Assembly (NCBI RefSeq): GCF_044324875.1
Contig: NZ_CP172185.1
DNA: 64,000 nt
Strand: one strand, 5' to 3'
DNA from: Escherichia coli
Lineage (GTDB): Bacteria > Pseudomonadota > Gammaproteobacteria > Enterobacterales > Enterobacteriaceae
Each line of letters begins with the position of its first letter. Position 1 is the first letter of the stretch. Positions 25,937 to 37,541 of this stretch are shown here, in pieces. A program made the position numbers and the translations under genes. A model generated the notes under the pieces. That model was not told the origin of the DNA, did not search any database, and saw only the letters and a list, made by a program, of their open reading frames with translations.

Positions 25937-25959
25937 AGTGTTGCCTTTTTTGTTATCAA

Positions 25960-25990
25960 TAAAAAAGGCCCCCCGATTTGGGAGGCCTTA
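25960..25990 (-). terminator. pheA attenuator terminator hairpin
   Basis: On the minus strand: AAGGCCTCCCAAATCGGGGGGCCTTTTTTATTG, a GC-rich stem followed by a U-tract, between pheL and pheA. Confidence 0.6.
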
Positions 25991-26035
25991 TTGTTCGTCT
26001 TCGCATTCTGTTTCACACGACGAAACGCCTCCCAT

Positions 26036-26083
26036 TCAGGGGAAGGTAAAAAAGAATGCGAAGAAAAACGGTGTGTGTTTCAT
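26036..26083 (-). CDS. pheL: phe operon leader peptide (15 aa, 7 Phe)
   Basis: Minus strand ATGAAACACACACCGTTTTTCTTCGCATTCTTTTTTACCTTCCCCTGA encodes [15 protein letters not shown]. Under 60 aa, so absent from the ORF track. Confidence 0.85.
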   Translation of the reverse strand: [15 protein letters not shown]

Positions 26084-26186
26084 GTTTGTTTCCTTAAGTG
26101 ACTTTAGTACAGTACCCGTACTGTTTTCACGCTGTCAACAAAAAACGCGCCCGAAGGCGCGTTGGCGATACACTCAATATAAAGGA

Positions 26187-29379: not shown

Positions 29380-29441
29380 CCTAAAGAATCAAGACGATCC
29401 GGTACGCGTGATTTTCTTTTCACATTAATCTGGTCAATAAC

Positions 29442-29470
29442 CTTGAATAATTGAGGGATGACCTCATTTA
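29442..29470 (+). promoter_or_regulatory. Putative sigma-32 promoter of clpB
   Basis: CTTGAAT at 29442-29448 and CCTCATTTA at 29462-29470, about 40 nt upstream of the clpB ATG. Confidence 0.5.
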
Positions 29471-29508
29471 ATCTCCAGTAGCAACTTTGATCCGTTATGG
29501 GAGGAGTT

Positions 29509-32082
29509 ATGCGTCTGGATCGTCTTACTAATAAATTCCAGCTTGCTCTTGCCGATGCCCAATCACTTGCACTCGGGCACGACAACCAATTCATCGAACC
29601 ACTTCATTTAATGAGCGCCCTGCTGAATCAGGAAGGGGGTTCGGTTAGTCCTTTATTAACATCCGCTGGCATAAATGCTGGCCAGTTGCGCACAGATATC
29701 AATCAGGCATTAAATCGTTTACCGCAGGTTGAAGGTACTGGTGGTGATGTCCAGCCATCACAAGATCTGGTGCGCGTTCTTAATCTTTGCGACAAGCTGG
29801 CGCAAAAACGTGGTGATAACTTTATCTCGTCAGAACTGTTCGTTCTGGCGGCACTTGAGTCTCGCGGCACGCTGGCCGACATCCTGAAAGCAGCAGGGGC
29901 GACCACCGCCAACATTACTCAAGCGATTGAACAAATGCGTGGAGGTGAAAGCGTGAACGATCAAGGTGCTGAAGACCAACGTCAGGCTTTGAAAAAATAT
30001 ACCATCGACCTTACCGAACGAGCCGAACAGGGTAAACTCGATCCGGTGATTGGTCGTGATGAAGAAATTCGCCGTACCATTCAGGTGCTGCAACGTCGTA
30101 CTAAAAATAACCCGGTACTGATTGGTGAACCAGGCGTCGGTAAAACTGCCATCGTTGAAGGTCTGGCGCAGCGTATCATCAACGGCGAAGTGCCGGAAGG
30201 GTTGAAAGGCCGCCGCGTACTGGCGCTGGATATGGGCGCGCTGGTGGCTGGGGCGAAATATCGCGGTGAGTTTGAAGAACGTTTAAAAGGCGTACTTAAC
30301 GATCTTGCTAAACAGGAAGGCAACGTCATCCTGTTTATCGACGAATTACATACCATGGTCGGCGCGGGTAAAGCAGATGGCGCAATGGACGCCGGAAACA
30401 TGCTGAAACCGGCGCTGGCGCGTGGTGAATTGCACTGCGTAGGTGCCACGACGCTTGACGAATATCGCCAGTACATCGAAAAAGATGCTGCGCTGGAACG
30501 TCGTTTCCAGAAAGTGTTTGTTGCCGAGCCTTCTGTTGAAGATACCATTGCGATTCTGCGTGGCCTGAAAGAACGTTACGAGCTGCACCACCATGTGCAA
30601 ATTACTGACCCGGCAATTGTTGCAGCGGCGACGTTGTCACATCGCTACATTGCTGACCGTCAGCTGCCGGATAAAGCCATCGACCTGATCGATGAAGCAG
30701 CATCCAGCATTCGTATGCAGATTGACTCAAAACCAGAAGAACTCGACCGACTCGATCGCCGTATCATCCAGCTCAAACTGGAACAACAGGCGTTAATGAA
30801 AGAGTCTGATGAAGCCAGTAAAAAACGTCTGGATATGCTCAACGAAGAACTGAGCGACAAAGAACGTCAGTACTCTGAGTTAGAAGAAGAGTGGAAAGCA
30901 GAGAAGGCATCGCTTTCTGGTACGCAGACCATTAAAGCGGAACTGGAACAGGCGAAAATCGCTATTGAACAGGCTCGCCGTGTGGGGGACCTGGCGCGGA
31001 TGTCTGAACTGCAATACGGCAAAATCCCGGAACTGGAAAAGCAACTGGAAGCCGCAACGCAGCTCGAAGGCAAAACTATGCGTCTGTTGCGTAATAAAGT
31101 GACCGACGCCGAAATTGCTGAAGTGCTGGCGCGTTGGACGGGGATTCCGGTTTCTCGCATGATGGAAAGCGAGCGCGAAAAACTGCTGCGTATGGAGCAA
31201 GAGCTGCACCATCGCGTTATTGGTCAGAACGAAGCGGTTGATGCGGTATCTAACGCTATTCGTCGTAGCCGCGCAGGGCTTGCTGACCCGAATCGCCCGA
31301 TTGGTTCATTCCTGTTCCTCGGCCCAACGGGTGTGGGGAAAACTGAGCTTTGTAAGGCGCTGGCGAACTTTATGTTTGATAGCGACGAGGCGATGGTCCG
31401 TATCGATATGTCCGAGTTTATGGAGAAACACTCGGTGTCTCGTCTGGTTGGTGCGCCTCCGGGATATGTCGGTTATGAAGAAGGTGGCTACCTGACCGAA
31501 GCGGTGCGTCGTCGTCCGTATTCCGTCATCCTGCTGGATGAAGTGGAAAAAGCGCATCCGGATGTCTTCAACATTCTGTTGCAGGTACTGGATGATGGGC
31601 GTCTGACTGACGGGCAGGGGAGAACGGTCGACTTCCGTAATACGGTTGTCATTATGACCTCTAACCTCGGTTCCGATTTGATTCAGGAACGCTTCGGTGA
31701 ACTGGATTATGCGCACATGAAAGAGCTGGTGCTCGGTGTGGTAAGCCATAACTTCCGTCCGGAATTCATTAACCGTATCGATGAAGTGGTGGTCTTCCAT
31801 CCGCTGGGTGAACAGCACATTGCGTCGATTGCGCAGATTCAGTTGAAACGTCTGTACAAACGTCTGGAAGAACGTGGTTATGAAATCCACATTTCTGACG
31901 AGGCGCTGAAACTGCTGAGCGAGAACGGTTACGATCCGGTCTATGGTGCACGTCCTCTGAAACGTGCTATCCAGCAGCAGATCGAAAACCCGCTGGCACA
32001 GCAAATACTGTCTGGTGAATTGGTTCCGGGTAAAGTTATTCGCCTGGAAGTTAATGAAGACCGGATTGTCGCCGTCCAGTAA
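29509..32082 (+). CDS. clpB: Chaperone ClpB (Hsp100 disaggregase)
   Basis: 857 aa starting [18 protein letters not shown]; two AAA+ modules ([18 protein letters not shown]). The ORF track start at 29497 is 4 codons upstream. Confidence 0.95.
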
Positions 32083-32196: not shown

Positions 32197-32224
32197 TTGT
32201 CAGGCCGGAATAACTCCCTATAAT
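32197..32224 (+). promoter_or_regulatory. rRNA operon promoter P1
   Basis: TTGTCA (32197-32202), 16-nt spacer, TATAAT (32219-32224); AT-rich UP-element-like sequence upstream. Confidence 0.7.
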
Positions 32225-32522: not shown

Positions 32523-34064
<1,542 letters not shown>

Positions 34065-34149
34065 CCTTAAAGAAGCGTACTTTGCAGTGCTCACACAGAT
34101 TGTCTGATAGAAAGTGAAAAGCAAGGCGTCTTGCGAAGCAGACTGATAC

Positions 34150-34225
34150 GTCCCCTTCGTCTAGAGGCCCAGGACACCGCCCTTTCACGGCGGTAACAGG
34201 GGTTCGAATCCCCTAGGGGACGCCA
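34150..34225 (+). tRNA. gltW: tRNA-Glu (UUC) in the 16S-23S spacer
   Basis: GTCCCCTTCGTCTAGAGGCCCAGGACACCGCCCTTTCACGGCGGTAACAGGGGTTCGAATCCCCTAGGGGACGCCA, 76 nt. Confidence 0.95.
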
Positions 34226-34418
34226 CTTGCTGGTTTGTGAGTGAAAGTCGCCGACCTCAATATCTCAAAACAGACTGTTAAGTCTTGTTTGAGATATTTG
34301 CTCTTTAAAAATCTGGATCAAGCTGAAAATTGAAACACTGAACAACGAAAGTTGTTCGTGAGTCTCTCAAATTTTCGCAACACGATGATGAATCGAAAGA
34401 AACATCTTCGGGTTGTGA

Positions 34419-37323
<2,905 letters not shown>

Positions 37324-37422
37324 ACAACGCCGAAGATGTTTTGGCGGATGAGAGAAAGATTTTCAGCCTGATACAGATTAAATCGACAGGTCATAACGAG
37401 ACGTGTTGATAAAACAGAATTT

Positions 37423-37541
37423 GCCTGGCGGCCGTAGCGCGGTGGTCCCACCTGACCCCATGCCGAACTCAGAAGTGAAACGCCGTAGCGCCGATGGTAG
37501 TGTGGGGTCTCCCCATGCGAGAGTAGGGAACTGCCAGGCAT
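37423..37541 (+). rRNA. rrfG: 5S ribosomal RNA
   Basis: TGCCTGGCGGCCGTAGCGCGGTGGTCCCACCTGACCCCATGCCGAACTCAG...CTGCCAGGCAT. Confidence 0.9.

Follow-up and report, generated by a model that had tools for sequence, protein, structure and literature searches.

The window, that is, the whole stretch of 64,000 nucleotides of Escherichia coli DNA analyzed here, contains on its + strand, from 27.6 to 37.5 kb, the genes rluD, yfiH and clpB and an rRNA operon. This is the E. coli arrangement, and in E. coli K-12 the genes at this place are likewise rluD, yfiH, RyfD, clpB and the rrn operon. The clpB coding sequence (29509..32082, +), defined by its open reading frame and translation and by the RefSeq annotation of a 99.9%-identical genome, encodes full-length ClpB95 of 857 aa. 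Pfam identifies Clp_N, AAA, AAA_lid_9, AAA_2 and ClpB_D2-small domains in the product, which thus has the N domain, the two AAA+ modules and the ClpB D2-small domain of a class-1 Hsp100 and is a clpB orthologue; the gene is annotated in 5425 E. coli genomes.

The start codon ATG 29509 is the RefSeq start in the closest genome (99.9% identical) and is served by a primary Shine-Dalgarno (SD) sequence GGAGG (29500..29504, +), visible in the sequence and recovered by the SD scan. The mechanically called open reading frame begins at ATG 29497 (MGGVM...), four codons 5′ of the annotated ATG 29509; this ATG overlaps the SD of the real clpB start, and no SD of its own was found upstream of it. A match to the RyfD sRNA family (29390-29528, +, 125 bits) lies on the clpB-sense strand, covers the spacer between yfiH and clpB and the promoter region of clpB, and reaches 20 nt into the CDS, at the same place as the ryfD annotated in K-12. 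Within this region, 5′ of clpB, CTTGAA (29442-29447), a 14-nt spacer and CCTCATTT (29462-29469, +) together make up a putative promoter (29442-29469, +) that we take to be of the heat-shock (sigma-32) type, judging by eye against the consensus.

A complete rRNA operon (32523-37539, +; 16S, tRNA, 23S, 5S) follows directly 3′ of clpB. The annotation of a near-identical genome gives the tRNA of the operon as tRNA-Glu, the spacer between 16S and 23S contains a StyR-44 match (34303-34411), and the operon is preceded by a near-consensus sigma-70 promoter (32197-32224, +; TTGTCA, 16 nt, TATAAT; 11 of 12 matches). The other Rfam matches, namely tmRNA (7730-8092, −), the Phe leader (25959-26084, −), AsrC, the antisense of rseC (55619-56450, −), the rncO leader (59234-59448, +) and the OhsC antitoxin sRNA (62860-62936, −), are all expected in an E. 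coli chromosome segment.

Sequence of the internal start at codon 149

Inside clpB, the first-pass annotation had pointed to a GGAGG at 29941-29945 followed by an in-frame GTG and had equated the pair with the known internal initiation site of ClpB. The sequence and a script both confirm the GGAGG, which occurs only once in the clpB CDS, and show the SD to be longer than claimed, with 8 nt instead of 5. The internal SD GGAGGTGA (29941..29948, +), picked out by the SD scan and by anti-SD duplex energy, matches the complement of the 3′ end of 16S rRNA over 8 nt and is spelled by the codons for Gly145 (GGA), Gly146 (GGT) and Glu147 (GAa). The GTG (29953..29955, +) is likewise borne out as codon 149 of the clpB frame, since 29509 + 148*3 = 29953; it encodes Val149 in the long form and would be read as fMet in the short one. 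It stands 4 nt from GGAGGTGA and 7 nt from the GGAGG core, a functional spacing. Reading from this codon in the clpB frame to the clpB stop gives the ClpB80 frame (29953..32082, +; 2130 nt, 709 aa), which has the length of the ClpB80 CDS of K-12.

That the site corresponds to the known one is settled by comparison with K-12, where MG1655 RefSeq lists two CDSs under b2592: clpB (2731600..2734173; NP_417083.1) and “ClpB80” (2731600..2733729; YP_010051194.1). The latter is 444 nt shorter and thus starts at codon 149, with an SD, spacer and GTG identical to those in the window. Alignment to this reference, which had been proposed as a check, gives 98.68% nucleotide identity over clpB, with no amino acid difference and 34 synonymous nucleotide differences. 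None of these 34 falls between codons 86 and 174; they lie elsewhere in clpB and are its only difference from K-12, and the two sequences are identical from CDS nt 256 to beyond the internal start. The codon-149 internal start is therefore real and already known: it is the textbook ClpB80 start, intact here and ordinary.

The internal SD and GTG exceed chance expectation. The predicted duplex of GGAGGTGA with the anti-SD has an energy of −10.6 kcal/mol, the most stable in clpB, against a gene-wide mean of −2.4, and among the 49 internal in-frame ATG, GTG and TTG codons of the gene only GTG 29953 has a correctly placed SD of at least 5 nt. We shuffled the synonymous codons of clpB 5000 times with the protein and its codon usage unchanged; 1.9% of the shuffles placed an 8-nt SD ahead of some internal in-frame start codon, and 1.1% reproduced the exact 8-mer together with GTG at codon 149. 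The SD depends on the GGA at Gly145, although GGA is the rarest glycine codon in clpB (3 of 63). These figures bear on the reading in which GGAGGTGA is a by-product of a conserved Arg-Gly-Gly-Glu linker and the GTG is just one of the four valine codons, with no initiation taking place. The linker itself speaks for such a by-product, since the peptide R-G-G-x-x-V is kept in 71-76 of 79 species for protein reasons; the rare GGA and the 1.1% of shuffles argue against it. It has also already been refuted for K-12 and Salmonella by Ribo-RET and mutagenesis (10.1101/520783, PMC11005335), and we give it practically no credence.

Published experiments, made independently, mark this codon as the internal initiation site. 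Meydan et al. (10.1101/520783) named three E. coli genes whose internal starts had been characterized before, infB, mrcB and clpB, and found specific Ribo-RET peaks at the clpB internal start in E. coli BW25113 and BL21, all three genes serving as positive controls. In infB (IF2-alpha/beta) and mrcB (PBP1b), an in-frame internal SD and start codon likewise yield an N-terminally truncated isoform from one mRNA; the proteins are unrelated to ClpB, whereas the clpB truncation drops one complete folded domain. In Salmonella, a HiBiT blot resolved two ClpB bands (Fijalkowski et al., PMC11005335), and in Salmonella Typhimurium (ClpB-L/ClpB-S) experiment has proven that the short form starts at the homologous GTG, nt 445 (Val149). 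Salmonella is another species, and the short:long ratio of about 1:9 in the condition tested there may not transfer to the window strain.

Conservation within and beyond E. coli

The first-pass annotation had also called the internal start conserved, and this holds at close range. Of 5426 complete E. coli genomes, 5425 have a match to the 2.7-kb clpB region (best 99.9%), and in 5145 of these the whole gene shows 95-99% identity to the window. A stretch of 55 nt surrounding the internal start is 100% identical in 5377 of the 5425, and the 30-nt core from SD to GTG is present as an exact word in 5416 of the 5426. In strain N96, the one variant sampled, the differences from the window are all synonymous and lie downstream of the internal start. 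Across four Enterobacteriaceae, namely the window, E. albertii, Citrobacter werkmanii and Enterobacter cloacae, whose synonymous-codon identity to the window over the whole gene is 82% in E. albertii, 65% in C. werkmanii and 61% in E. cloacae, the 2574-nt CDS contains only four invariant runs of at least 20 nt: nt 1-41, 277-299, 425-449 and 2113-2138. The first is the primary initiation region of clpB, and the third is a 25-nt run (29933..29957, +) that covers the internal SD and the GTG. The other two, of 23 and 26 nt, lie at 29785-29807 and 31621-31646 (+). Together with the shuffle frequencies, the exact cores and the 25-nt run amount to synonymous constraint on the site, whose invariant synonymous positions are a further argument against a mere by-product of the linker. 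Judged by these alignments, E. coli and the enterobacteria close to it conserve the SD and GTG module at codon 149.

At greater distance the claim fails at the DNA level. One scan of species-representative genomes gave 80 clpB loci from gamma- and betaproteobacteria (66-100% aa identity), in 79 of which codon 149 could be mapped. The protein is well conserved here: residue 149 is Val in 76 genes and Ile in three, and Gly-Gly precedes it in 71 of the 79. The codon is not, as GTG was observed at position 149 in 36 genes where the valine codon usage of each gene predicts 35.7. A general enrichment of GTG across species is therefore rejected, and agreement with codon usage is what a by-product of the linker would also give. 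GGA encodes Gly145 in 11 of the 79 genes against 5.4 expected (P = 0.016), and the SD energy falls within the best 2% of its own gene at 16 of the 79 loci, 13 of which have GTG against 7.0 expected (P = 0.0012), with SD scores at codons 145-146 inflated in all species since GGN GGN (Gly-Gly) is inherently SD-like, and with P values from tests (Fisher, Poisson-binomial) that treat species as independent, which they are not. At the remaining 63 loci GTG is slightly under expectation (23 vs 28.8). The co-occurrence suggests that SD and GTG work as one functional unit in the genes that have both, and it tells once more against the by-product reading.

The module is missing from Photorhabdus (GGT GGT ... 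GTT), Providencia (no SD), Vibrio hannami (GTT, no SD), V. mexicanus (GTG, no SD), and Shewanella and all sampled Pseudomonas (GTC, no SD). A strong SD with GTG is scattered elsewhere, in Rodentibacter, Pseudidiomarina, Xanthomonas massiliensis and Alcanivorax. No nearby in-frame alternative start preceded by an SD was found in the taxa that lack the module or in the species without GTG at codon 149; such starts occur in only four species, all of which have GTG at 149 as well. The overall pattern points to a lineage-restricted unit, and with moderate confidence we favor the view that the module has been repeatedly gained and lost and is not a general feature of bacterial clpB. The description of this GTG as highly conserved was drawn from protein alignments (PMC6168691). 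Conservation of Val149 in the protein does not imply conservation of the internal start, because a start-capable codon and an SD are needed at the DNA level, and strong SD and GTG are found together in only 13 of the 79 genes.

Beyond these groups, M. tuberculosis, Leptospira, Thermus and Synechococcus are reported to have ClpB in two sizes, the short one without the N-terminal domain (PMC6168691, PMC6941012), but their start codon and SD differ from those of E. coli, and any homology would concern the Val residue and not necessarily the initiation module itself. In Leptospira, for example, the internal start of clpB is an ATG with AGGGAA, unlike the GTG of E. coli. The module is absent from Anaplasma (PMC11268196).

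Domain boundary, transcript and the source of ClpB80

Codons 1-148 (29509..29952, +) encode the N-terminal domain, which consists of two Clp_N repeats by Pfam. Both Clp_N stretches (best 17-68) end before residue 149, and the first AAA module begins at about residue 180-203, which places codon 149 in the linker that joins the N-terminal domain to NBD1. Initiation at this codon would thus remove exactly the N-terminal domain, and the Pfam boundary agrees with the earlier description of the product as an isoform without the N domain. The same position fits another reading, in which anti-SD pairing at the internal SD would serve mainly to pause elongation, giving the N-terminal domain time to fold, with initiation as a secondary effect. 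It has been proposed, although the proposal is disputed, that SD-like sequences inside genes slow elongation in E. coli. A pause needs no start codon, yet the strong SD co-occurs with GTG, and the domain boundary is the same in most species, where it is found without any SD. Furthermore, mutation of nothing but the GTG abolishes the short protein in Salmonella (PMC11005335). We regard a primary role in pausing as highly improbable.

Neither the promoter scan nor the predicted RNA fold singles out this region. Within clpB, a scan of the + strand 5′ of codon 149 for the sigma-70-like consensus gave no match, and the 120-nt fold around the internal start has an MFE of −28.1 kcal/mol against −25.8 ± 3.4 for shuffles (z = −0.67). 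Local mRNA structure was therefore rejected as a regulator of the internal start, and the sequence here gives no account of the reported heat-dependent change in isoform ratio. In the MFE fold, the internal SD (29941-29948) pairs weakly with the upstream CCACCGCC (29904-29911, +), an anti-SD-like sequence inside the CDS; with the fold not significant, this pairing may be due to chance. Taken together, the empty sigma-70 scan and a fold like that of shuffled sequence suggest, as the simplest mechanism, that ribosomes bind the internal SD of the full-length mRNA directly.

The scan also bears on other origins of an 80-kDa species, namely an internal promoter or transcript, proteolysis of the N domain, or initiation at Met143 (ATG 29935). 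For a transcript origin one may cite Leptospira clpB expressed in E. coli, where one non-heat-inducible transcript start lies upstream of the internal start (PMC6941012), and for Met143 the gene-calling pipeline that placed the Salmonella Ribo-RET signal there (PMC11005335). The former is opposed by the absence of a sigma-70-like match in the scanned part of clpB. Met143 can be dismissed as the start, as no SD lies upstream of ATG 29935 and as the mutants in Salmonella refute it: the Met143 mutant keeps both forms, while GTG445->CTT (Val149) leaves the long form only (PMC11005335). Taken as a group, we consider these origins very improbable.

Initiation at codon 149 is the explanation that we prefer: the site is almost certainly an internal translation initiation site of E. 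coli clpB and the source of ClpB80. Under this model, one heat-inducible clpB mRNA would be read from two starts. Ribosomes binding the 5′ SD (29500-29504) would begin at ATG 29509 and produce full-length ClpB (857 aa, about 95 kDa), and those binding directly to the internal SD GGAGGTGA would begin at GTG 29953 and produce ClpB80 (709 aa). By its sequence, the window strain would probably make the short isoform too. Our own analysis covers sequence, frame, spacing, identity with K-12, synonymous constraint and position at the domain boundary; the literature supplies initiation at the codon, the need of the short form for the GTG and the synergy of the hetero-oligomer. According to the summaries in PMC6941012 and PMC11268196, which go back to Squires 1991, Park 1993, Chow & Baneyx 2005 and Nagy 2010, the N domain, which interacts with substrate, is missing from the short form, and the two isoforms hetero-oligomerize as mixed hexamers, the mixture disaggregating better than either isoform.

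Work on the ClpB80 start goes back to the early 1990s; the K-12 reference annotates it, and methods for mapping start sites use it as a positive control. In the closest genome to the window, the automated annotation gives the long clpB CDS only; automated pipelines list one clpB CDS in this lineage, which leaves the ClpB80 proteoform unannotated outside K-12. If the lineage-restricted reading is true, claims of a “highly conserved GTG” made from protein alignments would go too far, and full-length ClpB would be the only product of this region in many bacteria.
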